This document shows positions 1,416 through 19,748 of a stretch of DNA of 32,000 nucleotides, one piece after another (position 1 is the stretch's first letter; the number at the start of each line of letters is the position of its first letter). The notes below the pieces were generated by a model. It saw nothing but the letters and a program-made list of their open reading frames with translations. It was not told where the DNA came from and did not search any database. The DNA is from Candidatus Saccharimonadota bacterium (GTDB lineage Archaea; Micrarchaeota; Micrarchaeia; Micrarchaeales; Micrarchaeaceae): positions 480,001 through 512,000 of the forward strand of contig OY970071.1 of the NCBI GenBank assembly GCA_963705375.1, in the 5' to 3' direction. The position numbers and the translations under genes are program-made.

Positions 1416-1419
1416 TCCG

Positions 1420-2182: not shown

Positions 2183-2887
2183 ATGACCGTCAAAGACAAA
2201 GTAGGCAGATTCGTATACAACAAACTTAATGTAGGCAACCTGCTAGCCCCATATGCTGTACAAAAACTATCAGCAGGCAATGGGGCCAAGAGCATAGAGC
2301 AAGCTATGGATTTTGCATTCAACTTCAATTGCTTTGAAATAAGAATAGCTCCGCAGCAGGTAAGATCAGAGCTAGCAGGCCTGCTTGAGATTGTGAAAGA
2401 GCTAAAGCCAAAGACCATACTTGAGATAGGCTCTGCTAGCGGGGGCACATTATACCTATTCTCAAAGTTCGCAGCTGAAAAGGCCAAGATAATAAGCATA
2501 GATATGGGCCATCCGGCATGGCGTGAAAAGACATACAAGGCATCTGTTCTTCCAAGCCAAGAGCTTAACCTGCTTAAATTAGATTCACATGATGCAACAA
2601 CACTAGAGCGCGTCAAAGGCATCCTGGCAGGTTCATCTATAGATTTCCTGTTCATAGATGGAGATCATTCATATAAGGGAGTCCGGAGGGATTTTGAACT
2701 GTATTCCGAATTGGTAGCGAAGGATGGGCTTATCGCATTGCACGACATAGCCAGGCATCCTATCGAAACCGGCTGCGAAGTGGACAGATTCTGGAATGAG
2801 ATCAAGGACAAGTACAATAGCAAGGAATTGATTGAGAACCAAGATCAAAGATGGGGAGGCATAGGCGTTCTTAAGGTAACTAGGTAA
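2183..2887 (+). CDS. Class I SAM-dependent methyltransferase (CmcI/Methyltransf_24-like), probable sugar O-methyltransferase
   Basis: ILEIGSASGGT glycine-rich SAM loop and FLFIDGDHSYKGVRRDFELY motif. Glycan-cluster context. Confidence 0.6.
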   Translation: MTVKDKVGRFVYNKLNVGNLLAPYAVQKLSAGNGAKSIEQAMDFAFNFNCFEIRIAPQQVRSELAGLLEIVKELKPKTILEIGSASGGTLYLFSKFAAEKAKIISIDMGHPAWREKTYKASVLPSQELNLLKLDSHDATTLERVKGILAGSSIDFLFIDGDHSYKGVRRDFELYSELVAKDGLIALHDIARHPIETGCEVDRFWNEIKDKYNSKELIENQDQRWGGIGVLKVTR

Positions 2888-2941
2888 GAATTTGTCGTAA
2901 TCTACCTAGTGCCTTTGTAAGTTTGAATCTCGTCTAATTGC

Positions 2942-4168: not shown

Positions 4169-5254
4169 ATGCGCTTGCAAAGATTATCCGTTCTGATATT
4201 CTCCAAAGATGATGTGGACAAGGCTACAGCCCTTATAAAAGACATATATTCGATCGCAGACCAGATTGTGGTGATAGATTCCAGCAGCAAGAGCAATCTC
4301 AAAAGGCTGGAAGCAATCAAAAAGAAGATGAGACTGAAGAAACTCGAGATATTTCACACAGTGGCACTGGGTTATGCGGATCCGCTCCGCATGTTTGGAT
4401 TGCATAAGTGCAGGTACGACTGGGTGCTCCACCTTGACACTGACGAGAGAGTGAACGAAGCGCTTAAGAATGATGTCAAAAGCGTGGTAGGCAGCACAGG
4501 GGCGCATGCATTCGCAATAAAACGGTATGAGGAAGCGCATCTGAACGGAGAGACGACCTCGTTCTTCACTTGGCAGATACGGCTCTACAACAGAAATTTC
4601 GTGAGATTCAAGGGCATAACCCATGAACAGCCGATCGTGGACGGCACAGTGGAGAGGCTAGATGATAAATACAAGATGCTGCACATCGCAGAGCTCCAGG
4701 GGAAGGCTTCGCACGAGTACACAAAGATGGAGATGTTCGAGCGCTTTTCATATGAGGCATTCAACGAAAGGATACTGGACTATGCTTTCAAGGCGATGAT
4801 GCCCGCCCAGAGGGACTTCAAAAAGACTGCTCTTGGAAAGGTAATATACGACGTGCTCCGCATTTATGAAGCACTGACGTTCAGGAAGGCAGATGAAGAG
4901 ATAAGCAACCTTGATTATTTTACATTGTATTCGTTGAGGGACTTGGCGTTCCAGATAAAGATGCGGCATTTTAAGGCGCACCAGATAGAAGAACGGCGTT
5001 GGGAAGGCATGGCCAGCATACTGCCGAACAGGATGACCTATATCAGTAGACTCAATAAATGGCGCAGCGCCAAGAACAGCAAGGCAATATTCGAGATTGC
5101 AAAGAACATAGAGAAAGATGGGATAATAAGATACCTGAGGCTTGATGATGACGATACAATCCGCGAGCTAAATGAAAAGTATGAAGGAAAGAAGCAGGGA
5201 GTCGACCTTTTGATCAAACTGCTAGAGGACAGATACTACGGCAGAGATTCGTAG
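4169..5254 (+). CDS. GT2-like glycosyltransferase with a helical C-terminal extension
   Basis: LSVLIFSKDD, VVIDSSS and HLDTDERV (DxD) in the first ~170 aa. GGAGG at 4164-4168 abuts the ATG at 4169, so the TTG at 4175 (6-nt spacer) is an alternative start. Confidence 0.55.
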   Translation: MRLQRLSVLIFSKDDVDKATALIKDIYSIADQIVVIDSSSKSNLKRLEAIKKKMRLKKLEIFHTVALGYADPLRMFGLHKCRYDWVLHLDTDERVNEALKNDVKSVVGSTGAHAFAIKRYEEAHLNGETTSFFTWQIRLYNRNFVRFKGITHEQPIVDGTVERLDDKYKMLHIAELQGKASHEYTKMEMFERFSYEAFNERILDYAFKAMMPAQRDFKKTALGKVIYDVLRIYEALTFRKADEEISNLDYFTLYSLRDLAFQIKMRHFKAHQIEERRWEGMASILPNRMTYISRLNKWRSAKNSKAIFEIAKNIEKDGIIRYLRLDDDDTIRELNEKYEGKKQGVDLLIKLLEDRYYGRDS

Positions 5255-5273: not shown

Positions 5274-6878
5274 TCATTCTCTGCGTATGGCGTTGTTGAC
5301 CGAAATAATCTTTCTTTTTCGTCTCATCTTCTTGTAGAGCCGGAACATTAATTGCAGTAGACCTAAATCGTTCATTGCTTTAGCCAATGGACTAACGACG
5401 TTGAATCGCATATTGCAATTCCTGCAAGTCAAGAAAGCCCAATAGAAAGATCTGTTAACCATCAAGAAGCAATTCTTGTATAAAATTTCTTTGTTGCAGA
5501 ACGGACATTTAACATTCAGACTGTAGCCACGCCCTTCTTTTTTGACTGAATTTGGCACCACATACTTCTCGTATTTGGACATGTATTTTTGGATCAGCTT
5601 GTCTAATTTTTCTATCTCTTCATCAGTCATGGACTCGGTCATGTTGTAAGTTTCGTCAGTGGCCATATTTTCCTCTATGAACGTCAGCTTATCTTTGATG
5701 ACGCCCTTCTCTATGCTTCTCGTGTACATTTCGCTCTTAGGATACGGTTGTATGAAACCCAGATTCACCTGGCCCATAGAATTATCCTTCCAGTAGTTCA
5801 GTGTTTCCATGGCAGTATTCCAAGTTTCTGCAGTATCGCCAAAAATAAAATTGGCCTGGACACCCATTCTAGCATCTAACGTCATTTTGAAAGCTTCATT
5901 TATTTGTTGGGGGGTTATGGGTTTTTTCATGCTTTTTAAAACTTCCTGGCTATAGCTTTCGAACCCGTAACTTATTATTTCGCAGCCTGACGCTTTCATG
6001 GTATTCAATAATTCTTTGTCCATTGTTCTGACTGACATCTGGCAGGTCCATTTTAAGTCGTAAGGCTTTATTCTATTTGAGAATTCCACTATCCTTTCCC
6101 TTTTCAAAGAGAACAAATCGTCATAAATTACCAATGTGTTTATTTTGTACTTCTTTACTGCCAGGTCTATTTCTTCGAATACATTATCCAAACTTCTTTC
6201 TCTATACACGCTGCCAATAGAATGATAGCAGAAGGTGCATTGGAATGGGCAGGACCTGCTGGCCAATATCGGATAAACTCTTGGTTCGTCAAAATAATTA
6301 TTGTAGTACCAACGGTTTGTAAATTGATTTTCAACGAACTCTTTGAACCCTAGTCCCTCCATATCTGGGAAGGGGATCTCGTCTATATTCTTAATCAGCG
6401 CTCTCTGGTTTGTCATACCAGAAGCATGGATTATGCCGTCAACGCCCTCTATGGTTTTTTTACCTTCAACCGCACCTAACAGATCGATTATGGTTTTTTC
6501 ACCTTCGCCGATTACGCCATAATCTGGATTAAGCGACTTGAAAATAAGTTCTGGCTCGCTAGTTATCATTGCTCCGCCTAAGATAATTTTTGGATGGTGA
6601 TTGTGATGTTCGCCAGAAAGTCTTATTGTATTGAATATGTCGCGCACCATAGAGTATCCTATCCCTATGTGCCCCGTGGCCACAACATCATAGCCATGTG
6701 ATAGCTTGTCTGAAAGTATATCTGACACATTTCCTGCAGCATGATTCAGATTTAGACACTCCACCTCGTGCTCTTGCTTCATGACAGAGGATATGTAGCC
6801 CAAGCCCAATGGAAACAGGTAATTGTAGTCCGGTGTGGCGCTGTTGCTATATCTTGGAACTACCAATAATATCTTCAT
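5274..6878 (-). CDS. B12-binding-domain radical SAM enzyme (class B, methyltransferase-like) with a C-terminal CxxC...CxxC zinc ribbon
   Basis: N-terminal MKILLVVPRY...PLGLGYISSVMKQEHEVECLNLNH resembles a cobalamin-binding domain. SRSCPFQCTFCYH is the CX3CX2C radical SAM motif. The C-terminus has CPFCNKE...CRNCN followed by a basic tail. Confidence 0.8.
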   Translation of the reverse strand: MKILLVVPRYSNSATPDYNYLFPLGLGYISSVMKQEHEVECLNLNHAAGNVSDILSDKLSHGYDVVATGHIGIGYSMVRDIFNTIRLSGEHHNHHPKIILGGAMITSEPELIFKSLNPDYGVIGEGEKTIIDLLGAVEGKKTIEGVDGIIHASGMTNQRALIKNIDEIPFPDMEGLGFKEFVENQFTNRWYYNNYFDEPRVYPILASRSCPFQCTFCYHSIGSVYRERSLDNVFEEIDLAVKKYKINTLVIYDDLFSLKRERIVEFSNRIKPYDLKWTCQMSVRTMDKELLNTMKASGCEIISYGFESYSQEVLKSMKKPITPQQINEAFKMTLDARMGVQANFIFGDTAETWNTAMETLNYWKDNSMGQVNLGFIQPYPKSEMYTRSIEKGVIKDKLTFIEENMATDETYNMTESMTDEEIEKLDKLIQKYMSKYEKYVVPNSVKKEGRGYSLNVKCPFCNKEILYKNCFLMVNRSFYWAFLTCRNCNMRFNVVSPLAKAMNDLGLLQLMFRLYKKMRRKRKIISVNNAIRRE

Positions 6879-7247: not shown

Positions 7248-8576
7248 ATGATGCCGAACACCGCACAAGATGCTATCAGAGAAGAGATACTCAAAAAGGT
7301 GAAACAGTTCTCTGACCTCAGGACAGAGCAAGAGTTTGTTCCTGGCAAGACAAGGATACCTTACGCCGGCAGAGTCTACAATTACGAAGAGATGACGACG
7401 CTAGTGGATAGTGCGCTTGATTTCTGGCTCACTGCCGGAAAGTACGCTGAACGCTTTGAGAAGGAGTTTGCAGAATTCTTCGGCACAAAGTATTGCGCCC
7501 TTACAAACTCTGGCTCGTCCGCAAATCTGCTTGCGCTTTCTGCGCTTACAAGCAATGCACTCGGAAAAGACAAGCTTAGGCGCGGAGACAAAGTAATAAC
7601 CTGCGCCACAGGCTTCCCGACAACGCTCAACCCGATATACCAGAATGGCCTCATACCGATCTTCGTCGACGTAGAGATAGGCACGTACAACCCACTTCCG
7701 GCCGGAATAGAGGAAGCTGTGGAAAAAGGGGCCAGGGCAATAATGCTGGCGCACACACTTGGAAACCCCTTCGACCTTGACACTACAATGAAGGTCGCTA
7801 AAGAGCATGGGCTCTATGTCATAGAGGACTGTTGCGACGCGGCAGGTGCCAGGTGGGATGGAAAGCCTGTAGGGACTTTTGGAGATTTTGGAACTGTGAG
7901 CTTCTATCCTGCACACCAGATGACCATGGGAGAGGGAGGCGCAGTTATGACTTCCAATGCTATTTACAAGAAACTTGTTGAGTCTTTCCGCGACTGGGGA
8001 AGGGATTGCTACTGCCAAGCCGGCAAGGACAACACATGCGGAAAGAGGTTCGTACAGAAGATGGGAGAACTTCCGATGGGCTACGACCACAAATACACAT
8101 ATTCGAATATCGGGTACAACCTAAAGGCCACAGACATGCAAGCGGCCGTAGGGGTCGCCCAGCTCAAGAAGTTGCCGGAGTTCTTGAGAAAGAGAAGAGA
8201 GAACTTCCAGTTCCTCCTAGCCAACCTCAAGGAGCACGATGACAAGTTCATAATGCCTGAAAAGTACGCAAAGGCAGAAATCAGCCCGTTTGGATTTCCA
8301 CTATCAGTCAGAAAGGATGCCAACTTTACCAAGAATGATATCGTTGAACGATTGGAATCCAAAGGCATACAGACCAGGATGCTGTTCGGGGGCAACTTGG
8401 TAAGGCAGCCTGCCTATATAGGAATGGAACAGGAACGAGTAGGAAAACTTGAGAATTCAGACTTCGTAATGAACAACACCTTCTGGATAGGCGTTTATCC
8501 TGGACTTACCAAGCAGATGCTAGAGTATGTCATAAGTGTGTTCGAGGAGTTCGTAAAAGAAAAGGCAGGCAGGTAG
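7248..8576 (+). CDS. rfbH: CDP-6-deoxy-L-threo-D-glycero-4-hexulose 3-dehydrase (E1; RfbH/DdhC/AscC type), PMP- and [2Fe-2S]-dependent
   Basis: DegT-fold protein of 442 aa. I counted an exact C-X57-C-X1-C-X7-C pattern (EDCC...57 residues...CYCQAGKDNTC). SFYPAHQMTMGEGG carries His where aminotransferases have the PLP lysine. Confidence 0.8.
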   Translation: MMPNTAQDAIREEILKKVKQFSDLRTEQEFVPGKTRIPYAGRVYNYEEMTTLVDSALDFWLTAGKYAERFEKEFAEFFGTKYCALTNSGSSANLLALSALTSNALGKDKLRRGDKVITCATGFPTTLNPIYQNGLIPIFVDVEIGTYNPLPAGIEEAVEKGARAIMLAHTLGNPFDLDTTMKVAKEHGLYVIEDCCDAAGARWDGKPVGTFGDFGTVSFYPAHQMTMGEGGAVMTSNAIYKKLVESFRDWGRDCYCQAGKDNTCGKRFVQKMGELPMGYDHKYTYSNIGYNLKATDMQAAVGVAQLKKLPEFLRKRRENFQFLLANLKEHDDKFIMPEKYAKAEISPFGFPLSVRKDANFTKNDIVERLESKGIQTRMLFGGNLVRQPAYIGMEQERVGKLENSDFVMNNTFWIGVYPGLTKQMLEYVISVFEEFVKEKAGR

Positions 8577-8585
8577 CAAAAAGGC

Positions 8586-9569
8586 TCAGTGATCAAGCGT
8601 CAGGTCCCTTGTTTTATGTAACACCGGATATATCGCATATCTGATGAACGCATCCGGCAAAGCTAATGTGAAAAGCAGTGCCATCTTCGTAAGAGCACTT
8701 ATGCTGCTGTTGGACCTCACGTATGTCCTATAATTGCCCATTTCATTCGGGTTCTGGAGCATATTGATGCATGCTATGCCTATCAAGTTGATTGTTGGAA
8801 GAGCACCCACAGCCTTCAGGACCTTGTTAGGATAGTTGGGCTTTAGCTCTTCCAGTGCTGCCGGGAAAACAACAAGCCACGTCCTGAACGCAATAACCGG
8901 TATGGTGCACCGTGTATGGTATTTTATCAGCGGTTGTGCCAGCAGCTTGCCATTTTTCCCGACGATAGCCCTGAAGAAGAGCGTTGTGTGCAAGAATTCT
9001 TTCGGACCGAGATCCTCGCCCTCCATGTTGTTTAGCTCACTTCGCAGGTATCGCGTTCTTGTTATTATGCTACCCATGAACCCAGCATAGCCTGCTTTCT
9101 GTTTCAATAGCACTTTTGCATGATCCCCTTTCGAATAGAAGGCGTCTGTTCTTGCGTGGATCTTGGTGTTTTCGAATTTTCTTGAGAATGTGTCATCCCA
9201 TACTTCCACATCGATCTGTATGAAATCGCATTTCGAGTCCAGATTTTTGACTATAATATCAATGGCATGCTCCTTCACTATGTCGTCATCGCCAAATATC
9301 CATGCAAATTCGGTATCGCCCATGCCTAGCAGGTTTATCAGGTTAGATGCGTACGTATCACCTAGCTTAGTCTTGTTCCTCTTGTAGAAGATGTTGCGGT
9401 ATTCTTTTTTTAAAATCTTGACTGCTTTTTCCGTTTCGTCTGCTGCGCTGTTGTCAGAGACATATATTGGAAAACCGTATTTCTTTAATTGGGGTATGAA
9501 GTGCCTTATGCATTTTTCCAAGTCGTCCCTTCGGTTACGAGTTGGAATATAGATTCCGAGCTTATTCAT
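8586..9569 (-). CDS. Glycosyltransferase family 2, last gene of the CDP-sugar operon
   Basis: MNKLGIYIPTRNR, YVSDNSAADET and IFGDDDIV (DxD). I chose the ATG at 9569, which overlaps the rfbG stop by 8 nt. The track's longer N-terminus (to 9647) lies inside rfbG. Confidence 0.65.
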   Translation of the reverse strand: MNKLGIYIPTRNRRDDLEKCIRHFIPQLKKYGFPIYVSDNSAADETEKAVKILKKEYRNIFYKRNKTKLGDTYASNLINLLGMGDTEFAWIFGDDDIVKEHAIDIIVKNLDSKCDFIQIDVEVWDDTFSRKFENTKIHARTDAFYSKGDHAKVLLKQKAGYAGFMGSIITRTRYLRSELNNMEGEDLGPKEFLHTTLFFRAIVGKNGKLLAQPLIKYHTRCTIPVIAFRTWLVVFPAALEELKPNYPNKVLKAVGALPTINLIGIACINMLQNPNEMGNYRTYVRSNSSISALTKMALLFTLALPDAFIRYAIYPVLHKTRDLTLDH

Positions 9570-10614
9570 GCAATCGTTTTTTAAACTCGGAGAGTTGCGT
9601 CCGCGAGTAGGTGAAGGGCACTCTGTGATCCTTGTAGAAGTGCGCATACCATGAAGCAGTGCTTCTCACAGTGTCCTCAAAGCTGTTTATGGGTTTCCAT
9701 CCCAGTCCTTTCTTTGATTTATCAGAATTCAGCAGCAGGATCCTGTCTTCATGCCCTTTATGGCTTTTATGAATTTCGTATTTGATATTTAGGTACTTTG
9801 AAATTTCAGTTATTAGATCCAGGACTGTCTTCGCATAACTGGATGAGAAGTTCCATGCCCCAGAGTACTTGCCCGGGTCGGTATAGAGTTTCTCTCCGAG
9901 GGTAAGATAGCCGTTCAGGAAGTCCAGTACATAAGTCCAAGGCCGTATTGCACTTGGATTTCGTATCATTATCGTATCGTTAGCAGCATAAGAGCGCGCG
10001 AGATCAGGCATGAGCCTATGCTCGCCCCAGTCTCCGCCTCCGATAATGTTTCCGGCGCGCACTGTTGCAACTCCTGCATCTGACAAGAAGCTGTTCTTGT
10101 AGGATTTTGTTATCAGCTCTGAACAGGCCTTGCTAGAACTATAGGGATCGTATCCACCAAGCTTATCATCCTCTTTATACGCCACCCGTGTTCCTTTGTT
10201 TTCATAGACCTTATCAGTAGTCATGTTCAGTATAGCCTTTGTCTTGCCAGCCCTTCTTATCGCATCCAACAAATTAAGAGTGCCTATCGCATTTGTAATG
10301 TACGTATCGATGGGAGTGACATAGGAATCTAGAAGTATTGGACGGGCAGCCAAGTGAAATACCATCTCTGGTTCCTGCTTCTTTATCAACCCGAGCACTT
10401 GGTCTTTTTTCCGTATGTCGCCAGTTATATTGGTCACTTTGTCCTCAAGGCCTAGAAACTGATAGTGATAAGGATTGGAAGGTGGATTTGAAGAAAAACC
10501 AATTACATTGGCACCTAATTCGGTGAGCCACAGAGTGAGCCACGAGCCGATAAAGCCCGTATGGCCTGTGACTAGAACTTTTTTGTCCCTATAGAAATTA
10601 GAGAAGTTTGTCAT
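9562..10614 (-). CDS. rfbG: CDP-glucose 4,6-dehydratase
   Basis: FYRDKKVLVTGHTGFIGSWLTLWL Rossmann start, YSSSKACSE (YxxxK), and a 350-aa length typical of RfbG/DdhB. Confidence 0.85.
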   Translation of the reverse strand: MTNFSNFYRDKKVLVTGHTGFIGSWLTLWLTELGANVIGFSSNPPSNPYHYQFLGLEDKVTNITGDIRKKDQVLGLIKKQEPEMVFHLAARPILLDSYVTPIDTYITNAIGTLNLLDAIRRAGKTKAILNMTTDKVYENKGTRVAYKEDDKLGGYDPYSSSKACSELITKSYKNSFLSDAGVATVRAGNIIGGGDWGEHRLMPDLARSYAANDTIMIRNPSAIRPWTYVLDFLNGYLTLGEKLYTDPGKYSGAWNFSSSYAKTVLDLITEISKYLNIKYEIHKSHKGHEDRILLLNSDKSKKGLGWKPINSFEDTVRSTASWYAHFYKDHRVPFTYSRTQLSEFKKRLHE

Positions 10615-11538
10615 TTCATTACGCTCTTGATCCTGCTATAAATGTCTGAGGCACTTATGCCGTAGCTTTTGAATAAGTACTCTTTGGTACCGGCAACATG
10701 CGTAAACTCATCTGGTAACTTGAATGGTAGGAAGCTCTGCACTTCCTTTCCAGCCAGAGTGCTTGCAACTTTTTCGGCAAGAGCACCAGTATTGTCTTCT
10801 ATGGTCACGATAATCGCCTTACCCTTTGCCGAACCTATGACGGCACCATAATCAAAGGGTTTGAAAGTGTGTATTTCGAGCACCTCAGCAGTATCCTTTT
10901 CATCCTTGTTGAGCATACCCGCAACCTCAAGCGCCACCTTCGTAAGGATTCCGCTTGACACTATAAGTATCTTTTTGCCTGTTGTAAGCCTTAGCGCTTT
11001 TCCAATCTCTATCCTGAGGTCTTCGCTGTGCAATACAAGATCTTCGTTCTTTGAGAGCCGCATGTATACTGGACCTTTTATGCTGTCAATATTTTGCATG
11101 AATAGCCTGACTTCCTGCGGGTCGGAAGGGCTCAGAATTGTCAGATTTGGTAGGGCATCGGCCACTTTCAAGTCTTCTAACGGCTGGTGGGTCGCTCCTG
11201 CGTCGGCATACGCCAAGCCTGCACCAACTCCGACCATCCTTACGGGAAGATTGGGATAGCACAGGTCATCCCTCACCTGTTCGAACGTGCGGTATAGCAA
11301 AAACGGGATGATTGAATAAACGAATACCTTCTTGCCGAGACTGGCCATGCCTGCAGATACGCCAATCATGTTCTGTTCTGAGAGGCCCATGTTTCATGAA
11401 GCGCCTAGGGTAATCTTCGCGTATCTTTTCGAATGCCGAAAATCCAAGGTCGCCCGCCAACAAATAGGTAAGCTCTTTGCCTTCTTTCTTCTCCTTGCCC
11501 ATTATGTTTAACAATTCGTTCACAAATGCGCGTCTCAT
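10611..11538 (-). pseudogene. Transketolase C-terminal (pyrimidine-binding/C-terminal domain) subunit, interrupted by a 1-nt frameshift
   Basis: The N-terminal 48 codons (MRRAFVNELL...REDYPRRFM) are in one frame and MGLSEQNMIGVSAGMASLGK... (10611-11390) is in another. They rejoin as RRFMNMGLSEQNMIG if one T of the TTT run at 11392-11394 is removed. The 928-nt span equals 309 codons plus 1 nt. Confidence 0.75.
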
Positions 11539-12317
11539 GATATCTCCGATATGAAATCCTTTACATTGCCGCTGTTTGGAGATTTGTAGTGCCACTCCAG
11601 CTTGTCCTCCATTGACTTGACACCTTTCCCCAGAATTGTGTCTGCGATGATCAGCAAGGGTTTGGCTGAATTTGACTTCAGTGCTGCTGCGATCTCGTCG
11701 TAGTTGTGGCCGTCTATCTCCTTTACATCCCATCCTGCGCTGGAAAACTCTTTGTGGACTATTTCGGCAGTTAGCAGCGTTCTGTCGAGCCCCTGCCATT
11801 TATTGCTATCAACTATCACTACAAGATTGCTCAGGCCCGCCATGCTCGCGAAGTTCATGGCCTCAAAGACGCTGCCCTCCTGACATTCTCCATCACCCAT
11901 CAGCACATATATGGTGCCGTCCTTTCCGTCATGTTTGTTGACTAACGCCATACCTGCAGCAATAGGAAGCCCGTGACCCAGGGATCCTGTGGCGACCTCG
12001 ACGCCTTTCATTCCCTGAATGGGATGTTCGGCCAGCAGAGAGCCTTCCTTTCCTATAGAGCCATAAGTTTCGTCTGATATGATTCCTTTCTTGTGCAGCA
12101 CGGAATACAGAGCAACTGCAGCATGCCCTTTGCTTAGGATAAAATGATCGTTCCGCCCCAGAACCTTAAAATACAGCGTTATGAGAATATCCAGACAAGA
12201 AAAATCTGAGCCGATATGGGAGGTGTTAGCCGCGGCATGCGCGACTATAAGCTCCTTTCTAAGCTCATTAGCTATGGATCTTAAATCAGGCACATTCGTC
12301 ATCCCATTTTTATTCAT
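11535..12317 (-). CDS. Transketolase N-terminal (thiamine diphosphate-binding) subunit
   Basis: SHIGSDFSCLDIL, FILSKGHAAVALY, ATGSLGHGLPIAAGMA and LMGDGECQEGSVFEA (ThDP GDG motif). ATGA overlap with the C-subunit start at 11535-11538. Confidence 0.85.
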   Translation of the reverse strand: MNKNGMTNVPDLRSIANELRKELIVAHAAANTSHIGSDFSCLDILITLYFKVLGRNDHFILSKGHAAVALYSVLHKKGIISDETYGSIGKEGSLLAEHPIQGMKGVEVATGSLGHGLPIAAGMALVNKHDGKDGTIYVLMGDGECQEGSVFEAMNFASMAGLSNLVVIVDSNKWQGLDRTLLTAEIVHKEFSSAGWDVKEIDGHNYDEIAAALKSNSAKPLLIIADTILGKGVKSMEDKLEWHYKSPNSGNVKDFISEIS

Positions 12318-13203
12318 AAAATTTTATGTTCGTGGCCATCCACTTCTTTGTTTTTTTCAGGCCTTCGCTTAGCGAATACTCCGGTGTCCAGCCCAATTCT
12401 TTACGGATCTTGTGCGTATCCGCCTTCCATATCCTGTCTGGCTCCTTTTCCCTTATTTTAGAAGACCATTCCACTTTGGCTTTTACCATGTTTGCAACAT
12501 CGCCAACTCGTGACTGCCTACCAGAGCCCACATTGAAAATACTCCCGCTAGCTATATCTTTTGACTTCTTTATTATAAGTTCGTACGCTTTTGCCACATC
12601 CTCGATAAATACAAAATCTCTAACGTTGTTTTTGCTTGACAGCGTTGCAGTCGTGCCTTTAATTGCAGAATAGAGCAGACACGGCACCAGCCTGTGTTTT
12701 TCTTCAAAATAACCATAGACTGAGAACAACCTCAACGTGACTGCGTTTATTTTTCCTGCTTTGAGCAAGTCGGTTACAAGAGCTTTGGACATGGCATAAT
12801 CTGTGTACGGCTCCGGTATGTCGGTCTCTCTCATTGCACCGCTTTTTATGCCGTACTCTGAACTGCTTCCCGTGTTTATAAATAGAGGGACTCCATTGCA
12901 CGCATCTATGACATTCATAGAGCCGAGTATGTTCGTAGATATTATGGTGTCCGTGTTACGTTCGAAGGGGTAGCCACCGTAGACCGCACAGTGTATCAGA
13001 ACGTCCGGTTTTATCTTAGTTATCGTTTCTCTTACATTCGGACGGTTCTGCAAGTCAAAGAACACCGTATCTATGTCACCCAGTCTCCAATTGTTCTTAT
13101 TTCTAGATAGTGCAAACACTTCGTGATCATTTGCGAAGTGTCTTACAAGATTCGCACCCACAAATCCCGAAGCGCCAGTTATTGCTATTCTTAATCTTTC
13201 CAT
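12310..13203 (-). CDS. NAD(P)-dependent SDR (extended epimerase/reductase family), candidate CDP-4-keto-sugar reductase or epimerase
   Basis: IAITGASGFVGANLVRHF Rossmann motif and YAMSKAL (YxxxK). 297 aa. Overlaps rfbF by 13 nt and tkt-N by 8 nt. Confidence 0.7.
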   Translation of the reverse strand: MERLRIAITGASGFVGANLVRHFANDHEVFALSRNKNNWRLGDIDTVFFDLQNRPNVRETITKIKPDVLIHCAVYGGYPFERNTDTIISTNILGSMNVIDACNGVPLFINTGSSSEYGIKSGAMRETDIPEPYTDYAMSKALVTDLLKAGKINAVTLRLFSVYGYFEEKHRLVPCLLYSAIKGTTATLSSKNNVRDFVFIEDVAKAYELIIKKSKDIASGSIFNVGSGRQSRVGDVANMVKAKVEWSSKIREKEPDRIWKADTHKIRKELGWTPEYSLSEGLKKTKKWMATNIKFYE

Positions 13204-13964
13204 AATTTGACCTTATCGTCGTTGCTGTTCATTATGTCTTCGAGCTCTCTCTTGTCCCTGAGGGTGTCTACGCATTTCCAGAACCCTTCGTGCTTATAGG
13301 CATACAGTTCGCCTTCTTCGGCCAACTTCTGCAACGGATAAGTCTCAAAAGCAGTCTTATCATCTTTGATATAATCGAGCACACTTTTAGAGAGGACCAT
13401 GAAACCGCCATTTATGAATGGACTGTCATCTAGCCTCTTTTCCTGGAACGACAGCACCTTCCCGTCCTTTTCAAGGTTAACTATTCCGAATCTAGGCATC
13501 CGCACCGCAGTTATAGTGGCCTTCTTTCCATGAGATTTATGGAAATCGAGCAGTTTTTTTATGTCTATATCAGACACTCCGTCACCATAGGTGAGCATGA
13601 ACGTATCGCCGTCCAGGTGATTCGCAAGCCTCTTCATCCTACCGCCGGTGAGCGTGTCAAGACCTGTGTCTATGAGCGTGACGTTCCATTTTTCTCTTTT
13701 GTCCTTAATGATGTCCACGCCATGGTTAGCCATATTAACAGTAAAGTCGCTTGAGAAGCGGGACATGTGCGCAAAATATTCCTTGAGCAAATCCCCTTTA
13801 TAGCCGCACGCGACTACGAAATCGTTGAAGCCGTAGTTAGAGTAAGTCTTCATCACATACCATATCAACGGCTTACCTGCAATCTCTACCAACGGCTTTG
13901 GTATGGTAGAGGTCTCTTCGCTAAGTCTAGTACCGTATCCGCCAGCGAGTATTACGACTTTCAT
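13191..13964 (-). CDS. rfbF: Glucose-1-phosphate cytidylyltransferase
   Basis: MKVVILAGGYGTRLSEETSTIPKPLVEIAGKPLIWYVMK and LTYGDGVSDIDI. 257 aa, typical of RfbF/DdhA. Confidence 0.85.
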   Translation of the reverse strand: MKVVILAGGYGTRLSEETSTIPKPLVEIAGKPLIWYVMKTYSNYGFNDFVVACGYKGDLLKEYFAHMSRFSSDFTVNMANHGVDIIKDKREKWNVTLIDTGLDTLTGGRMKRLANHLDGDTFMLTYGDGVSDIDIKKLLDFHKSHGKKATITAVRMPRFGIVNLEKDGKVLSFQEKRLDDSPFINGGFMVLSKSVLDYIKDDKTAFETYPLQKLAEEGELYAYKHEGFWKCVDTLRDKRELEDIMNSNDDKVKLWKD

Positions 13965-14186: not shown

Positions 14187-15794
14187 ATGGCGTTCTGGGG
14201 ATTATTGGTATCTCTAGTCGTAGACACAGCATACTCGTGGGAAAGACTGCTCATCGCGCTCGCCATCTCAATGGTGGCAGGCATGCTGCTCGGCATATTC
14301 GCAGGGATCTCGAGCAAGGCAGAGCGTATACTGATACCCCTTCTTGACGTATTCCAGACATTGCCAATACTGGCGTTCTTCCCGTTCGTGATATTCGTAA
14401 TAGTGGCATCAGTTCCCAACTTCACAGGCATAGACATAGCAGTAGTGTTCCTTATCATAACGAGCATGGTCTGGAACATAGCGTTTGGCGCATACGAAGC
14501 AGTTAAAGCGCTGCCGAACGTGGTCAACGAGCTCTCAAGGCTTTACCACATGAGCCTTTTTGAGAGGTTCATAAGAATATACATACCGGCGAGCATGCCG
14601 AAGGTCATCGACCAGTCAATGCTCTCATGGTCCATCGGCCTGTTCTACCTCGTGACAAGCGAGATATTCTCGACTGGAAACAAGATGTACGAGGTAAAGT
14701 ACGGAATAGGCGTGAAGCTGACAGCACTTGCGCTTGCAGGCAACCTAGCGCAATATGTATTAGGAATCGCTGTTTTCATCGTGTTCGTCATCCTGACGAG
14801 ATTATTGCTGTTCAGGCCATTGCGAAATTTCTTCAACAAGTTCAACGAGGAGCACGTGATAAAGGCAAGGAGAGCTCATGCGCAAAGGACTGAGAAAGAG
14901 ATCCACGCGATAAAATACAAGGTAAAGATGGCACCACCACAGATGCGCGTAAGGCCAGGGTACATACTATGGAAGAGCGGCACGAGCAGCAGAGCATTGC
15001 GTGCTCCGACACTGGAGGAGGAGCTTGCCAGGAAAAGCAAGAGGGCAAGGCGTGTCGGGCTAGAGATTTCCATTGCAGTGATAATCGTGACCCTCACCGT
15101 GCTGTCCGCGGTAGCTTTGATCAAGGGAATAGTGCACGACGAATACGTTGTGCTCGTTTCGCTCATTACGTCGTTCACAAGGGTTTGGTTCGTGTTTGCA
15201 GTTGCTTTAGCAGTTGCGATACCTCTTAGCGTGTATCTGCTGTTCATGTCAAAGCGCATCGAGCAGTACCTGCTCACATTCCAGATACTGGCATCGGTAC
15301 CCGCAACGATATTGCTGCCGTTGCTTGTAAGTGCACTTGCTCATTCGCCAGACCATGCAGAGCTTGTCGCATTCTCCATACTGTTCCTCAGCGGGATCTG
15401 GTATGTGCTGTTCGGCATATTCGCAGACAGGAGCTACATACAGCGCTGGCTGTTCGAGGTACGGAACCTCTTCCATGTGCGTGGCGTGAATGCATGGAAG
15501 AACATCTACATCAAGGCCATACTTCCAGGATTGATAACTGGAGGCATAACAGCGGTAGCGGCAGAATGGAACGCGTGCATCGTTGCAGAGTACTTCACCT
15601 CTTCGGCCGTGAGTGCAGGAACTGTGATAACTGCCGTGCACACGGGCATAGGCGTACTATTGGACACGTCCCTGCAGGCAGGCAACCTCACGATGATGGT
15701 GCTGGCGCTGATAAACCTTACAATCATGATACTCATACTGAACAAAGTAGTATGGCGTAGGCTGTACGATAGAATGGCGAAGAGCTACAAGTGA
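14187..15794 (+). CDS. ABC transporter permease, fusion of two NitT/TauT-type (SsuC-like) permease domains
   Basis: Two hydrophobic modules, each with an SsuC-like loop (...LSRLYHMSLFERFIRIYIPASMP... and ...NLFHVRGVNAWKNIYIKAILPGL...). They are joined by a Lys/Arg-rich ~80-aa linker. Confidence 0.7.
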   Translation: MAFWGLLVSLVVDTAYSWERLLIALAISMVAGMLLGIFAGISSKAERILIPLLDVFQTLPILAFFPFVIFVIVASVPNFTGIDIAVVFLIITSMVWNIAFGAYEAVKALPNVVNELSRLYHMSLFERFIRIYIPASMPKVIDQSMLSWSIGLFYLVTSEIFSTGNKMYEVKYGIGVKLTALALAGNLAQYVLGIAVFIVFVILTRLLLFRPLRNFFNKFNEEHVIKARRAHAQRTEKEIHAIKYKVKMAPPQMRVRPGYILWKSGTSSRALRAPTLEEELARKSKRARRVGLEISIAVIIVTLTVLSAVALIKGIVHDEYVVLVSLITSFTRVWFVFAVALAVAIPLSVYLLFMSKRIEQYLLTFQILASVPATILLPLLVSALAHSPDHAELVAFSILFLSGIWYVLFGIFADRSYIQRWLFEVRNLFHVRGVNAWKNIYIKAILPGLITGGITAVAAEWNACIVAEYFTSSAVSAGTVITAVHTGIGVLLDTSLQAGNLTMMVLALINLTIMILILNKVVWRRLYDRMAKSYK

Positions 15795-15798
15795 GTGA

Positions 15799-16539
15799 AT
15801 GGACATAATAACCGTCGATAAAGTGAAATACGCAATAAAGGAGTCGGTCATAATAGACAACGTGTCGTTCATAGGCAAGAAAGAGAAGTTCGTTTCTCTG
15901 ATAGGCCCGTCGGGTTGCGGAAAGAGCACGCTTCTCCGTATCATAGCGGGGCTCGTACCGTCAACACAAGGCAGGGTCCTCTTCAAGGGCAGGAAGATCA
16001 TAACTCCGATAAGGGAAGTATCGTTCGTCTTCCAGGATTTCGGACTTCTGCCCTGGCTAAGCAATGTCGAGAACGTGAAGCTAGGATTATCAATGGTGCA
16101 GATGAGTGACGTGGAAAAAACGCAGAGAGCGATGCGCCTGCTCAAGAATTTTGGGCTTGAGGGTTTTGAGAGCTCCTATCCAAACGTGCTTAGTGGAGGG
16201 ATGAAACAGAGGGTAGGAATTGCGCGGGCAATCGTATCCAACCCGACTGTGCTCCTTATGGACGAGCCTTTCAGTTCGCTCGATGAGTTGACAGCAAACG
16301 CACTGAGAGCAGAGGTCGTGCGCATGCTACTCGACAAGAAGATACCAGTGATATCGATAATAATGGTGACGCACAACATAGAGGAAGCTGTCGAGCTCTC
16401 CGATGATATCGTGGTACTCTCCAACAAGCCAACAAGGGTGAAGGAGATAATACACATCAACCTTCCAAGGCCGCGCGACAAGCGCAGCAAGAAATTCCTA
16501 GACACGGTTGATGAGATAGCCAAAGTGCTGAAGATATAG
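15799..16539 (+). CDS. ABC transporter ATP-binding protein (NitT/TauT family-like)
   Basis: Walker A GPSGCGKST, signature LSGGMKQRVGIARA and Walker B LLMDEPFSSLD. Starts 4 nt after the permease stop. Confidence 0.85.
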   Translation: MDIITVDKVKYAIKESVIIDNVSFIGKKEKFVSLIGPSGCGKSTLLRIIAGLVPSTQGRVLFKGRKIITPIREVSFVFQDFGLLPWLSNVENVKLGLSMVQMSDVEKTQRAMRLLKNFGLEGFESSYPNVLSGGMKQRVGIARAIVSNPTVLLMDEPFSSLDELTANALRAEVVRMLLDKKIPVISIIMVTHNIEEAVELSDDIVVLSNKPTRVKEIIHINLPRPRDKRSKKFLDTVDEIAKVLKI

Positions 16540-16551
16540 CAAGGAAGACAG

Positions 16552-17076
16552 TCACCACGGGACACTCTTGATTCCTAGCTTATATGCGCCTCTGTTAGTT
16601 AAAACGTGCAGAACACCGGTCAGCACAAAGAGAAACAGCAGGCCGTATGCGCCTGGCAAATACCCAAGCGGGGATGCCAACAGAAGCGCCGCAACAAAGA
16701 AGCCGTACTGGTCAAGAACAGGAAAGTGCTTGCCGGAAGACACGCCCACACGCCTTTTTATGAAGCTGCCTAGTATGTCCCCAATTAGCGCACCTATAGA
16801 CAGTAGAGAGACCATGGCAATAAGATGATAGAAAGAGATGGAAACAAGCATGTTGAAGAGGGGGTACTCTGCAGCACCCACAACAATGCCGCTAGCTATG
16901 CCCAGTGCGGTCCCGCGCATAGTCTTGTTATCGCCAAGAATTCGCTTGCCTTTTATCTTCATCTTGAAGTCAAGAGGCCTGCTACCTTTTCCAAACAACA
17001 CTGGAGAACCGTTTGCGACATATGCAGGCAGTATGTAGACTATCGGATACACGAACGCCGCGTAGAGTGCATGCAA
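16552..17076 (-). CDS. carS: CDP-archaeol synthase (DUF46/CarS family)
   Basis: LPAYVANGSPVLFG...PLDF...GDNKTMRGTALG motif string in a 174-aa polytopic membrane protein. Confidence 0.7.
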   Translation of the reverse strand: MHALYAAFVYPIVYILPAYVANGSPVLFGKGSRPLDFKMKIKGKRILGDNKTMRGTALGIASGIVVGAAEYPLFNMLVSISFYHLIAMVSLLSIGALIGDILGSFIKRRVGVSSGKHFPVLDQYGFFVAALLLASPLGYLPGAYGLLFLFVLTGVLHVLTNRGAYKLGIKSVPW

Positions 17077-17084
17077 GGCATCAC

Positions 17085-19748
17085 CTACAGGAGCATGCCC
17101 TCGGCTATGCGTTCGGAGCCTCCGCCCTTGAATTTCTTGCCTTCGCGCTTCGCATAGCCCATGACGAAATCAAGCGCACTAGAATCCGACCCTGTACCTG
17201 AAACGCAGACGATATCACCAACCTTGTTGTACAGCATCAGCAGGTTTCCAGGCTTGGCCTCGACGAACTGTGTCGCAATCTGGCGGAGAGTCTTCCTGCC
17301 GTGCTCCAGCTGCTTGACGGCAGTGCTGCCCTTTGATTCTGCAATAAGGTCGGACACTATGTATGCCATAAGTTCGCTGTCGCTCTTCTCGAGGCGCGCC
17401 TTGTAGTCCTGCAGCTCTTCGAGCCTTGCGCGCATGCCCTCGGTAAGCTTGTCCCGGTCAACGCCAGCCAGCGTTGCAAGGGAGTCTATGCTTCCGTCAA
17501 GCGCACCAATCCTGTTTATCGCAGCATTGCCGGCAACGAACTCTATCCTGTTGATGCCGTCGTGTATGTGCGAAGTTCCAATGATCCTTATCAGGCCTAT
17601 TCCGGACTCGCGGCCTGCGAGGTGAAGGCCTCCGCATGCTTCAGCATCTATCAGGTTTCCCTCAATGTCGTGCACCTCGACTATCCGCAGTCTGCTTGAG
17701 GGTGCGCCATGGCCTTGGTATATCGAGAAGCCGAACTTCTTCTCGGCATCTTTTCTGTCAAGCTCTTGCACGGACACGCGTATGCCATGGGTTATGTACG
17801 AATTGGCCTTGTCCTCTATCTCCTGCACCTGTTCGGCAGTCAGCTTGTCATAATGGGCTATGTCTATGTGCGCCTTTTCAACGGTTTTCTTGGCACCCTC
17901 CTGCCACGCGTGCTTCCCTAGAATGCTCCTGCACGCGGCGCTCACGAGGTGCGTGGCCGTATGGTGCGCCATAAGGCCTAGCCTGCGCTCCCTGTCGACC
18001 TTGCAATGCACTTTTGCATTCTTCTTGAACGTGGCGCGCTTGACGAGCTCGTGGACGATTATGCCGTTTGACGTCTGTACGTCAGCAACGCCTATGCCGT
18101 CTATCTCTCCGCGATCGGTCTCCTGGCCACCACCCTCAGGATAGAATGGAGTCCTGTCAAGCACGAGCAAGTTGCCAGTGCTGAGAAGCACCTTTGCATC
18201 GGCTTCGAAAGCGCCATCATAATAGAGCTTCTTTGTCTCAGGAAGGCCCTCCGTGCTTATGCCGAGCTCTCTCTGCTTCTTGCGCTCAGCAAAGTCGCTC
18301 TTCACCAGACGTGTGTAAGCCTCTTTCGGAACATCTATCGCAGCGTGCTTCTCCTTTGCCACGGACTCTATGAACTCAGGAGTTATGCCATTGCTCTCGT
18401 ATAGCGTGCGCATGCGCTCCGCTGTCAGCGGCTCTTTCTTCTCGAGCATCGTGCCGACGATCTTCGCTGCTGCGATCTTGGTGCTATCGTAGCGCGTACG
18501 TTCTATCTCGATGACCGATTTCGCAGTCTCCATGCAGTCGCGCAGGTTCGGATATATGTCGGACAGCGCGTCGGCATGGAGCTCCATTAGCTTCAGCAGG
18601 TCGATGTTTATGTCGTGTTCCTTTGAGAAGCCGAATATCCTACGTAGCAGTATGCGCAAGTTATAGCCGCCGCCCACGTTGCTTGGCAGCGCACCGTCGT
18701 TTATCGCGAAGAGCAGCGTGCGCGCGTGGTCCGCGATGGCGTATGAGGCCTGCATGGGCTTTATCACGTTGCGGTACTGGCTAGGGTCTATGTCTGCTTT
18801 CTGCAGTATGCGCAGTTCCGCAGATTCCCCATCAGTCGCTTCGGTGAGGTCGATGCTTCCGAACTCATTCGCGACTTTCGAATACAGCGAAGTGTCCGGC
18901 TTTATCCCTGCGCTCTTGTGTATGTAATCAAGCTGGCGCTTGAACACAGCATCGTACAGTGTCTGTGTGCCCGCCTTGAACCATATGTTGCGCTCGAATC
19001 CCCAGCCGACGTCGACCACCATGCCGTCGAGCTCCTTGATCTTGCCGTCTGTGTATTCGAACTGGGTGAAAACATTGTTGACGAGCTCAAGCCCGCCAGA
19101 GAACGCCTCTATGCTGGGGCCGAATTCTGAGAAATCGCCCATCGCCCAGACATCCTCTATGTATGTTATCGTCTCCTTCTTGATGCCCAGAAGCTCGGTG
19201 AGCAGACGGTAGTTGAGCTCTATAGTCCTGTCGCGCCAGTAGCCCTCTTTGGGATAGTTGAATGCAGTCTGGTTCGCCATCATGAACGCAGTCAGGTGCC
19301 TTCCGCTGACGCCCACGTTCGCGATGTCGTTGAAGCGCATGCACATCTGTGGTACAAGTAGAGGGTTAGCGGGGTACTCGAAGCTCATCTTGCCGTGCTC
19401 GATGCGCTGGAAATCCTGTATGCCTGCTATAGTATAATAGAGATCCTGTCGCCACCTGCTCACGACAGGATAGCTGTCCACTATCGCATGGCCTTCCTTC
19501 TTGAAGAACCTGGCGAAGCTGTGCCAGAACTCGGAGTAGTCGACGCTGCTAGGGTTTTTTCTTATGAAAGAGTATGGCTCATGGGATGAATCGCCGCACA
19601 GCTTCCTTGACGGGTCCGCGCTCCAGAAATACTTTCCGCACATCGAGCAGCTGCGCCTTTCGAAGCCCTGCTCCTTGAACACGCTAACCTCGTAATACTT
19701 GCGAGGCTCTTTCGAGAACTGTTTTCGTAACTCATCTTTGCTAGGCAT
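17085..19748 (-). CDS. alaS: Alanine--tRNA ligase, archaeal type
   Basis: ~887 aa with CSMCGKYFWS near the N-terminus, a HHTATHLV...H editing-domain motif and a C-terminal DHHA1-like region. I chose the ATG at 19748, which overlaps the upstream nuclease stop by 1 nt (TGATG). The track start at 19811 lies inside that gene. Confidence 0.9.
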   Translation of the reverse strand: MPSKDELRKQFSKEPRKYYEVSVFKEQGFERRSCSMCGKYFWSADPSRKLCGDSSHEPYSFIRKNPSSVDYSEFWHSFARFFKKEGHAIVDSYPVVSRWRQDLYYTIAGIQDFQRIEHGKMSFEYPANPLLVPQMCMRFNDIANVGVSGRHLTAFMMANQTAFNYPKEGYWRDRTIELNYRLLTELLGIKKETITYIEDVWAMGDFSEFGPSIEAFSGGLELVNNVFTQFEYTDGKIKELDGMVVDVGWGFERNIWFKAGTQTLYDAVFKRQLDYIHKSAGIKPDTSLYSKVANEFGSIDLTEATDGESAELRILQKADIDPSQYRNVIKPMQASYAIADHARTLLFAINDGALPSNVGGGYNLRILLRRIFGFSKEHDINIDLLKLMELHADALSDIYPNLRDCMETAKSVIEIERTRYDSTKIAAAKIVGTMLEKKEPLTAERMRTLYESNGITPEFIESVAKEKHAAIDVPKEAYTRLVKSDFAERKKQRELGISTEGLPETKKLYYDGAFEADAKVLLSTGNLLVLDRTPFYPEGGGQETDRGEIDGIGVADVQTSNGIIVHELVKRATFKKNAKVHCKVDRERRLGLMAHHTATHLVSAACRSILGKHAWQEGAKKTVEKAHIDIAHYDKLTAEQVQEIEDKANSYITHGIRVSVQELDRKDAEKKFGFSIYQGHGAPSSRLRIVEVHDIEGNLIDAEACGGLHLAGRESGIGLIRIIGTSHIHDGINRIEFVAGNAAINRIGALDGSIDSLATLAGVDRDKLTEGMRARLEELQDYKARLEKSDSELMAYIVSDLIAESKGSTAVKQLEHGRKTLRQIATQFVEAKPGNLLMLYNKVGDIVCVSGTGSDSSALDFVMGYAKREGKKFKGGGSERIAEGMLL

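Follow-up and report, generated by a model that had tools for sequence, protein, structure and literature searches.

YerE, an enzyme dependent on thiamine diphosphate (ThDP), and YerF act on the cytidine diphosphate (CDP) sugar CDP-4-keto-3,6-dideoxyglucose, and YerE provides the precedent for attack of a ThDP carbanion on C4 of such a substrate (PMC12247030). According to section 2.3 of the same paper, hydroxyacetyl branching in the miharamycin and amipurimycin clusters has been ascribed, as a proposal, to split-gene transketolases; 13 further Streptomyces clusters are listed there, and none of these enzymes is described as characterised in vitro. Transketolases of DPANN archaea have been read as pentose-phosphate enzymes of bacterial origin (PMC8407392). 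Here we consider a split transketolase-like pair, TktN and TktC, encoded in a 32-kb stretch of a Micrarchaeota genome (contig OY970071.1, positions 480,001 to 512,000; this whole stretch is called the window below), where the two genes lie among genes for CDP-sugar synthesis. Judged by its residues and its relatives, the pair is a specialised enzyme of a distinct and widespread clade, not a housekeeping transketolase. We take these genes to form a cassette that moves horizontally, rfbF-SDR-tktN-tktC-rfbG-GT2 (SDR, short-chain dehydrogenase/reductase; GT2, a glycosyltransferase), to which rfbH is added in the window, and its most likely product would be a C-branched CDP-deoxyhexose for a surface glycan.

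Family, clade and active site of the pair

The two proteins have the split-form, transketolase-like ThDP architecture, with the PP domain on TktN and the Pyr and C-terminal domains on TktC. The closest solved structures are those of the split transketolase of Carboxydothermus hydrogenoformans (6YAK for TktN, see Table 1; 6YAJ for the 308-aa TktC after repair of its reading frame, E 1.1e-47), and human transketolase is also among them. Against the NCBIfam transketolase equivalog NF004559, TktN scores 225.8 bits and the TktC part 124.5 bits, both below the cutoff of 488. Two other ThDP families were considered for the pair and rejected. A PDH-E1-like (pyruvate dehydrogenase E1) identity is ruled out by the score of TktN against Pfam E1_dh, 42.9 bits versus 104.6 for Transketolase_N; a YerE-like or acetolactate synthase (ALS)-like identity is ruled out by a match of TktN to PF02775 that is only weak (1.4e-5) and by the lack of TPP_enzyme_N and TPP_enzyme_M domains.

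In transketolases the active site is formed where the subunits meet. Kept in TktN are H34, K63/H65, H98, G141-D142-G143, N172 and H243, and in TktC E54 and H117; the ThDP/Mg2+ motif, the activating Glu and the catalytic His (equivalents of E. coli H26, H66, H100, H261 and H473) are invariant in the loci linked to CDP-sugar genes. H34, H98 and H243 of the window correspond to E. coli H26, H100 and H261, the trio that holds the C1 hydroxyl of the donor, and they too are invariant in all linked members. Other pocket positions have switched throughout the clade: Q115H and G244Y in TktN, the latter adjoining the catalytic H243, and F76I (human F389), H105G (human H416, E. coli H461), V110Y and Q118H in TktC, together with replacement of D113 (human D424, E. 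coli D469) by Ala, Leu or Gln; the window itself has G105 and A113. All 13 rfb-linked members have Gly at TktC 105 and none has Asp at 113, compared with His in 45 of 48 and Asp in 46 of 48 canonical split transketolases. From transketolase structures and mutagenesis we take H461 to be the phosphate-binding His and D469 to be the residue that reads the C2 hydroxyl of the acceptor. Their loss in favour of small or hydrophobic residues would fit a wider acceptor channel suited to a CDP-hexulose, and the retained R2 (equivalent of E. coli R358) and K163 (equivalent of E. coli R520; Lys or Arg across the clade) could then serve to bind the diphosphate.

The clade was defined with an alignment of the window, five further archaeal loci and 80 bacterial split-transketolase loci (one genome per GTDB species). 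The bacterial loci are 80 among the matches listed, all with at most 46% identity, and the close archaeal relatives were found through contigs encoding homologues. A neighbour-joining tree of concatenated TktN and TktC with 200 bootstraps falls into three groups: a canonical "QG/THDH" group (mostly Clostridia and like), an "HH/S-L" group (Rhizobiales, actinomycetes), and an "HY/G" (HY) group that contains the window and is marked by TktN H115/Y244 with TktC G105 and a residue other than Asp at 113. The HY clade is monophyletic in 100% of the bootstraps, as is the archaeal sub-clade within it. In a collection of 5.8 billion proteins, 119 of the 120 best TktN homologues carry H115/Y244, so the clade must be large. 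The first-pass annotation, made from the window alone, had given the pair a role in sugar branching and had named in advance what would speak against this, including tight clustering with housekeeping enzymes and the lack of a conserved linkage to CDP-sugar genes; the tree places the pair elsewhere, and the linkage recurs as described below.

The HH/S-L group is a second non-canonical clade, with TktN H115/H244 and TktC S105/L113, found in Rhizobiales, actinomycetes and Prevotella (L016, L028, L031, L036, L039, L043-L045, L047, L058 and L085); none of its loci is linked to rfbF and rfbG. Among plasmids, 828 records match TktN, and the hits H1-H25, from Rhizobiales and about 40% identical, probably belong to this second clade.

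Recurrence of the cassette in Archaea and Bacteria

The order rfbF-SDR-tktN-tktC-rfbG is found in all six archaeal neighbourhoods compared: the window, the contig P0002 of a sister genome (TktN 80% identical), the Micrarchaeota loci L002, L003/L004 and L005/L006, and the Thermoplasmata locus L092. GT2 follows rfbG directly in five of the six and lies about 5 kb downstream in L005/L006. Across these cassettes RfbF is 64-73% identical, and the GT2 that follows rfbG in L002-L004 and L092 is 41-53% identical. Among the 80 bacterial loci, RfbF and RfbG are both encoded within 10 kb of the transketolase in 9 of 20 HY loci, whereas none of the 60 other split transketolases has both at that distance (Fisher p = 7e-7); the nine linked loci belong to Omnitrophota, Babeliales, Actinobacteria, Anaerolineales, Bradyrhizobium diazoefficiens, Sphingobium agri and Lachnospiraceae. 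In the cultured Firmicute Caldanaerobius fijiensis DSM 17918 the cassette is collinear, rfbF-SDR-tktN-tktC-rfbG-rfbH-GT2-GT4-Wzy, a set whose proteins are 42-56% identical to those of the window and which includes a bona fide RfbH. In Clostridium sporogenes (L090), another cultured Firmicute, the order is rfbF-rfbG-C-methyltransferase-SDR-tktN-tktC-methyltransferase, adjoining rml genes and flagellin in what is a flagellar glycosylation island. The recurrence of the same cassette in so many genomes makes the arrangement far from a matter of chance, and the earlier view that the ThDP pair is an integral part of the sugar operon is borne out; the linkage is conserved across Archaea and Bacteria. 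Two TylC3-like C-methyltransferases (Methyltransf_13/14 domains) are encoded in the C. sporogenes island (L090, 5982-20301), whose gene content predicts a heavily branched flagellin sugar.

The arrangement within the cassettes has some regularities. In the window tktC and rfbG overlap by 4 nt, so that the transketolase adjoins the enzyme that creates the ketone, and the two are likewise adjacent or close in related loci. The SDR adjoins tktN/tktC in nearly all linked loci; in two of them a fusion of a GNAT-like N-terminal domain with a DegT aminotransferase, about 600 aa long and with the catalytic Lys present, stands in its stead between rfbH and tktN (L026, 8142-9980; L029, 8223-10004), and in L008/L010 a DegT gene lies directly downstream of the transketolase. 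The neighbour of the transketolase is in every case an enzyme acting on a carbonyl, and such an alternation between reduction (SDR) and transamination (DegT) would be expected if the transketolase product carried a new side-chain ketone. No donor-supplying gene, such as one making hydroxypyruvate, is conserved beside the transketolase among the loci compared. The other HY loci also lie among nucleotide-sugar genes (DegT aminotransferases, SDRs, RmlA/C). In L093 (8001-11735) the HY transketolase is followed directly by a transaldolase/FSA and an aminotransferase, with Wzy/Wzz, an NTP-transferase and two CDP-alcohol phosphotransferases also present; the HY clade is thus not uniform, and this gene content suggests a different product, for instance a sugar-phosphate or amino-polyol substituent.

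RfbH is less regular. It is present in the window, in C. fijiensis, in the sister genome and in L007, L013, L026, L029 and L088. No RfbH is encoded within 10 kb in L002-L006, in the 7.6-kb contig L092, or in L011, L012, L023, L027, L062 and L090, that is, in four of the six archaeal neighbourhoods and about half of the bacterial ones. The first-pass annotation had assigned 3-deoxygenation to RfbH and had taken CDP-4-keto-3,6-dideoxyhexose as the acceptor. The hallmarks of the E1 enzyme are indeed in place (see below), but RfbH is not a conserved partner of the pair. RfbH is an optional module, which makes CDP-4-keto-6-deoxyglucose the more likely conserved acceptor and 3-deoxygenation a step that only some loci add; the dideoxy sugar would then not be the substrate common to the family.

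A few further observations concern the surroundings of the cassettes. In the sister genome, an ALS-like ThDP enzyme (598 aa, TPP_enzyme_N/M/C), an aminotransferase and a 441-aa RfbH-like gene lie about 3-7 kb from the cassette (P0002, genes 14794-19266), and a YerE-like candidate may therefore coexist there with the transketolase-type one. The six-gene cassette is common to Micrarchaeota-like loci (L002, L003-L006) and the Thermoplasmata metagenome-assembled genome L092, and its gene order is shared by the closest bacterial relative. Thermoplasmata are known hosts of Micrarchaeota, and the distribution suggests transfer of the cassette across domains and between symbiont and host. A GtrB/ArnC-like polyprenyl-phosphate glycosyltransferase, recognised by eye from its motifs and C-terminal hydrophobic helices, adjoins several bacterial cassettes (L011, 8003-8989; L013, 11583-12704; L027, 14838-15842; L062, 12689-13627), which hints that the product sugar is moved there onto a lipid carrier for extracytoplasmic transfer.

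The cassette of the window and the reading frame of tktC

The genes of the cassette are listed in Table 1. Open reading frame (ORF) listing and domain scans agree with the first-pass annotation on gene content, order and strand and on the overlaps at the minus-strand junctions, which from rfbF to GT2 measure 13, 8, 4 (ATGA), 4 (ATGA) and 8 nt; rfbH is convergent to GT2 across a 9-nt gap. The GT2 ORF has a further in-frame ATG upstream, at 9647, which would extend it into rfbG by 86 nt, and the start in the table was chosen because homologues measure 318-337 aa. The window encodes the cytidylyltransferase, the CDP-glucose 4,6-dehydratase and the E1 3-dehydrase expected of a CDP-3,6-dideoxyhexose pathway. 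In RfbH, His223 within YPAH replaces the Schiff-base Lys, and the cysteines are spaced C196-x57-C254-x-C256-x7-C264. A C-x57-C-x-C-x7-C [2Fe-2S] motif, together with His in place of the Lys that binds pyridoxal phosphate, is the signature of E1 enzymes. Among the Pfam-scanned ORFs of the window none is an E3 reductase (RfbI/DdhD/AscD; ferredoxin-NADP-reductase-like, [2Fe-2S]); its gene may be located in another part of the 1.2-Mb genome, or its place may be taken by general reductases. The best PDB matches of the SDR are nucleoside diphosphate (NDP)-sugar enzymes, 2HUN and the reductase Rmd (2PK3), and it would act as the ketoreductase of a new branch carbonyl or as a 4-ketoreductase.

Table 1. 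Genes of the cassette and of rfbH in the window, with the site of the tktC frameshift
Feature	Coordinates	Strand	Properties
rfbF, glucose-1-phosphate cytidylyltransferase	13191..13964	-	257 aa; first cassette gene; NCBIfam TIGR02623 equivalog 337 bits (cutoff 300), Pfam NTP_transferase
SDR, extended, NDP-sugar epimerase/dehydratase/reductase type	12310..13203	-	297 aa; GASGFVG, Y136-AMS-K; Pfam Epimerase 1.4e-41
tktN, ThDP/PP-domain subunit, split transketolase-like	11535..12317	-	260 aa, intact; Pfam Transketolase_N (PF00456) 6.7e-30; 6YAK E 8.8e-45
tktC, Pyr and C-terminal domain subunit	10611..11538	-	Disrupted by a +1 insertion; PF02779 2.3e-20 and PF02780 3.5e-13 on the 259-aa part
Frameshift site in tktC	11392..11394	-	AAA run in ttcatgAAAcatggg, AA expected
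rfbG, CDP-glucose 4,6-dehydratase	9562..10614	-	350 aa; NCBIfam TIGR02622 equivalog 402 bits (cutoff 278)
GT2 glycosyltransferase	8586..9569	-	327 aa from ATG 9569; Pfam Glycos_transf_2 7.9e-11; last gene of the archaeal cassette
rfbH, E1-type pyridoxamine phosphate-dependent CDP-4-keto-6-deoxyglucose 3-dehydrase	7248..8576	+	442 aa; NCBIfam NF011936 671 bits (cutoff 423)

The single open frame earlier assigned to tktC does not hold up. Its span is 928 nt, not a multiple of three, and contains nine in-frame stops; 48 codons in frame with the ATG at 11538 are followed in another frame by 259 codons, which appear as an ORF at 11390-10611, and in tblastn comparisons intact homologues match the window in two frames with the switch at 11386-11393. 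Removal of one A from ttcatgAAAcatggg brings back the conserved FMNMGLSEQNM and a protein of 308 aa. An intact coding sequence is thus present for TktN and, because of the +1 frameshift, not for TktC. In the sister genome tktC is intact at 308 aa, and in other relatives it encodes 303-319 aa; the shift is therefore not a conserved recoding site. Programmed frameshifting or recoding was considered for this position and ruled out, as there is no slippery or stop-codon context and the tktC genes of relatives are intact.

The extra A may have arisen as a recent mutation that inactivated the gene, or it may be an error of sequencing. If the frameshift is real, the branching step, perhaps with the whole cassette, would be in the course of being lost in this Micrarchaeota population, and we regard this and an error of sequencing or assembly as evenly poised. 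The same extra A is found in the Logan assembly of run ERR11594402 (contig L001; 100% identity over 17.2 kb), the run of A is only three long, all other genes of the window (about 25 in total) are unbroken, and the intact gene of the sister genome leaves no conserved recoding to account for it. Both assemblies possibly come from the same reads, however, in which case the Logan contig is no independent proof of the frameshift; the length of the source contig, 1.2 Mb, hints at long-read data with indel errors; and the flanking genes are all intact with their overlaps preserved, so that any decay would have to be very recent.

Elsewhere the window encodes CDP-archaeol synthase, aRF1, PriS, PTH2 and AlaRS. 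Nearly all named homologues of this AlaRS (55-62% identity) come from Candidatus Micrarchaeota or Micrarchaeia, and the proteins of the window lie on a contig of 1,209,602 bp, as fits a DPANN archaeon with a small genome. No second transketolase is present within its 32 kb, and no pentose-phosphate genes lie near the cassette. The glycan cluster extends upstream of rfbH on the plus strand (669-3889 and 4169-5254). An rmlA-like nucleotidyltransferase gene and rmlC are found there, together with a CmcI/rhamnosyl-O-methyltransferase-like gene and another GT2. An ORF of 361 aa in this upstream region has no Pfam or NCBIfam match and by eye resembles a DxD glycosyltransferase. Adjoining rfbH on the minus strand (5274-6878) is a B12-binding radical-SAM enzyme of 534 aa, whose best NCBIfam matches are of the HpnJ, P-methyltransferase and C-methyltransferase types, all under cutoff. 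L014, L029 and L063 also have weakly similar radical-SAM genes close to their HY-clade transketolases, and the enzyme of the window may act as a C-methylase on the sugar of the cassette.

A candidate route to branched sugars and its comparison with known systems

By family assignment, RfbF provides CDP-glucose and RfbG converts it to CDP-4-keto-6-deoxyglucose, from which RfbH, where present, can take off the 3-hydroxyl to give the 3,6-dideoxy ketone. We propose, with a probability of roughly one half, that a transketolase-type ketol transfer to the CDP-4-keto sugar comes next and that reduction by the SDR follows. TktN/TktC would load a two-carbon ketol from a ketose phosphate or hydroxypyruvate as dihydroxyethyl-ThDP and add it to the C4 ketone, the expected site of attack because it is the sole electrophile in these intermediates. 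The resulting tertiary alcohol, bearing a 4-C-hydroxyacetyl group, would be reduced at its side-chain carbonyl by the adjoining extended SDR to a 1,2-dihydroxyethyl branch, and GT2 would then transfer the branched sugar. As in the first-pass annotation, a glycolaldehyde donor and this role of the SDR are what we infer. A glycolaldehyde (hydroxyacetyl) donor is mildly favoured over pyruvate because the His trio for the C1 hydroxyl is kept and because one clade member stands with a transaldolase.

Extended to the whole HY/G clade, the proposal becomes bolder, and we would put it at somewhat less than even odds. The clade may constitute a third, widespread and cross-domain ThDP route to C-branched nucleotide sugars, in which glycolaldehyde from ketose phosphates or hydroxypyruvate would be placed onto CDP-4-keto-(3,)6-deoxyhexose. 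The products would be octoses with a 4-C-(1,2-dihydroxyethyl) or 4-C-(1-amino-2-hydroxyethyl) branch, so far undetected, on archaeal (Micrarchaeota/Thermoplasmata) surface glycans, on O-antigen-like polymers of Firmicutes and on Clostridium flagellin.

Several points weigh against these proposals. Since tktC is frameshifted, the enzyme may be inactive in this particular genome. The donor is not readable from the sequence, and the family also holds DXS, which uses pyruvate. In L026 and L029 the 4-aminotransferase-like enzyme might draw on the C4 ketone in competition with the transketolase, and the SDR might be no more than a 4-ketoreductase. The locus with the transaldolase (L093) has no 4,6-dehydratase, from which it appears that some HY members may act on free sugar phosphates, and branching within the HY clade is weak (16-36% bootstrap). 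Finally, we know of no natural 4-C-(1,2-dihydroxyethyl)-6-deoxyhexose in glycans.

Let us consider, then, what else the pair might do. Perhaps it decarboxylates pyruvate in the manner of DXS or YerE and delivers an acetyl equivalent to the C4 ketone, after which the SDR would produce a 1-hydroxyethyl branch. A sugar of the yersiniose type, or the 3-hydroxy analogue of one, would result, and the pair would be a non-orthologous replacement of YerE that makes no new sugar. Models of DXS do match the pair (DXP_synthase_N 4.3e-11; TIGR00204 3.6e-28 for the C part), DXS structures are among the PDB matches of both TktN and TktC, the canonical phosphate-binding His and Asp are lost, and 2-keto acids are used by every sugar-branching ThDP enzyme that has been characterised (PMC12247030). 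We nevertheless hold a pyruvate donor to be unlikely, considering that TktN scores 225.8 bits to transketolase and 47.6 to DXS, that the donor His trio is invariant in all linked members, and that the neighbouring transaldolase of one clade member suggests ketol chemistry. The pair might instead serve the same glycan pathway with no branching at all, building or remodelling a small sugar-phosphate or polyol substituent, or cleaving or rearranging the hexulose; the SDR would then be a common 4-ketoreductase, and a CDP-6-deoxy or 3,6-dideoxy hexose would be formed. The combination in L093 of an HY transketolase with TAL/FSA, aminotransferase, NTP-transferase and CDP-alcohol phosphotransferases in the absence of a 4,6-dehydratase is consistent with such a function, as are the kinship of the SDR to the 4-ketoreductase Rmd and the retention of R2 and K/R163, which could still bind phosphate. 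What makes it distinctly unlikely for the window is that the archaeal and C. fijiensis cassettes couple the transketolase translationally between rfbF/SDR and rfbG, that the immediate relatives of the window are all rfbF/rfbG-linked, and that loci with RfbH keep the transketolase even though removal of the 3-hydroxyl makes C3-C4 cleavage impossible.

An ordinary transketolase of pentose-phosphate metabolism or shikimate supply, placed in a sugar operon by chance, would also show the Pfam transketolase domains and all the cofactor-binding motifs that we find, and the "bacteria-derived transketolases" of DPANN genomes are usually read as pentose-phosphate enzymes (PMC8407392). Nonetheless, the missed NCBIfam equivalog cutoff, the lack of the H461 and D469 equivalents, the separate clade with full bootstrap support, the linkage to rfbF/rfbG that is confined to this clade among the split transketolases compared and the absence of pentose-phosphate genes nearby together make a housekeeping function very improbable here, and we suggest that the pentose-phosphate reading is probably wrong for the HY clade as a whole.

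Ketol transfer to a CDP-4-keto sugar, if true, would have consequences in more than one direction. The clade would be the first widespread and experimentally tractable transketolase family that accepts a ketone on a nucleotide sugar; ThDP enzymologists have sought such ketone acceptance for the access that it would give to hydroxy-functionalised tertiary alcohols, and until now two Streptomyces antibiotics are the only cases for which it has been put forward. The surface glycans of archaea and bacteria, those of the flagellin islands of C. sporogenes included, would gain a new class of branched octoses. Cultured organisms in which this could be tested are C. fijiensis DSM 17918, C. sporogenes, B. 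diazoefficiens SZCCT0138 and S. agri MAH-33. Metabolic reconstruction would call for caution, since a "transketolase" in a DPANN or other small genome may be a glycan enzyme and not evidence of a pentose-phosphate pathway; TktN H115/Y244 with TktC G105 and non-Asp113 offers a simple signature that tells both kinds of transketolase apart.

Set beside the known systems, the pair shares with the housekeeping split transketolase of C. hydrogenoformans the two-subunit architecture, the ThDP/Mg motifs and the catalytic His. Where canonical split transketolases have Q115, G244, F76, H105, V110, D113 and Q118 (window numbering), however, the clade of the window has H, Y, I, G, Y, A/L/Q and H, and the genomic context differs as well. 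The PDH-E1-like (alpha-KADH2) enzymes of the AviB1/B2 type and KbDH-alpha/beta are, like the pair, two-subunit ThDP enzymes, and they place a C2 branch onto deoxy-keto-sugars; unlike it, they belong to another ThDP family, use pyruvate, act on dTDP-sugars and are encoded in actinomycete antibiotic clusters (PMC12247030).

Yersiniose A of Yersinia pseudotuberculosis (DdhA-D with YerE and YerF) resembles the route proposed for the window in its start from CDP-glucose through RfbF/DdhA, RfbG/DdhB and RfbH/DdhC, in the proposed ThDP attack on the C4 ketone of a CDP-keto-sugar followed by a reductase acting on the acyl branch, and in belonging to a surface-glycan cluster (PMC12247030). It differs in its ThDP enzyme, YerE being of the single-chain acetolactate-synthase/decarboxylase type (TPP_enzyme_N/M/C) and using pyruvate. 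The cassette family of the window, moreover, has RfbH as an optional member, and the window contains no E3 gene.

The summary of the miharamycin/amipurimycin type clusters in PMC12247030 goes back to Krug et al. (2024). In our full-text literature searches we met no account of transketolases in operons for CDP-sugars, O-antigens, S-layers or flagellin glycans, nor of such transketolases in archaea. As far as its section 2.3 goes, PMC12247030 already contains the proposal of transketolase branching for miharamycin and amipurimycin, and the claim of the first-pass annotation to a third, undescribed solution was in this respect overstated. From the description given there, to which our comparison is confined, the likeness lies in a split transketolase within a sugar-modifying cluster, with a sugar ketone as proposed acceptor and a C2 ketol as proposed donor; the difference is that those are secondary-metabolite clusters of actinomycetes, which make nucleoside-type high-carbon sugars after the action of a dedicated oxidoreductase. 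The genes of the window, by contrast, stand in a surface-glycan operon with a CDP-glucose 4,6-dehydratase, an arrangement spread over Archaea and many bacterial phyla. Transketolase branching of a keto-sugar is thus not new in principle; the new part is a transketolase clade of CDP-sugar operons that extends across Archaea and Bacteria.

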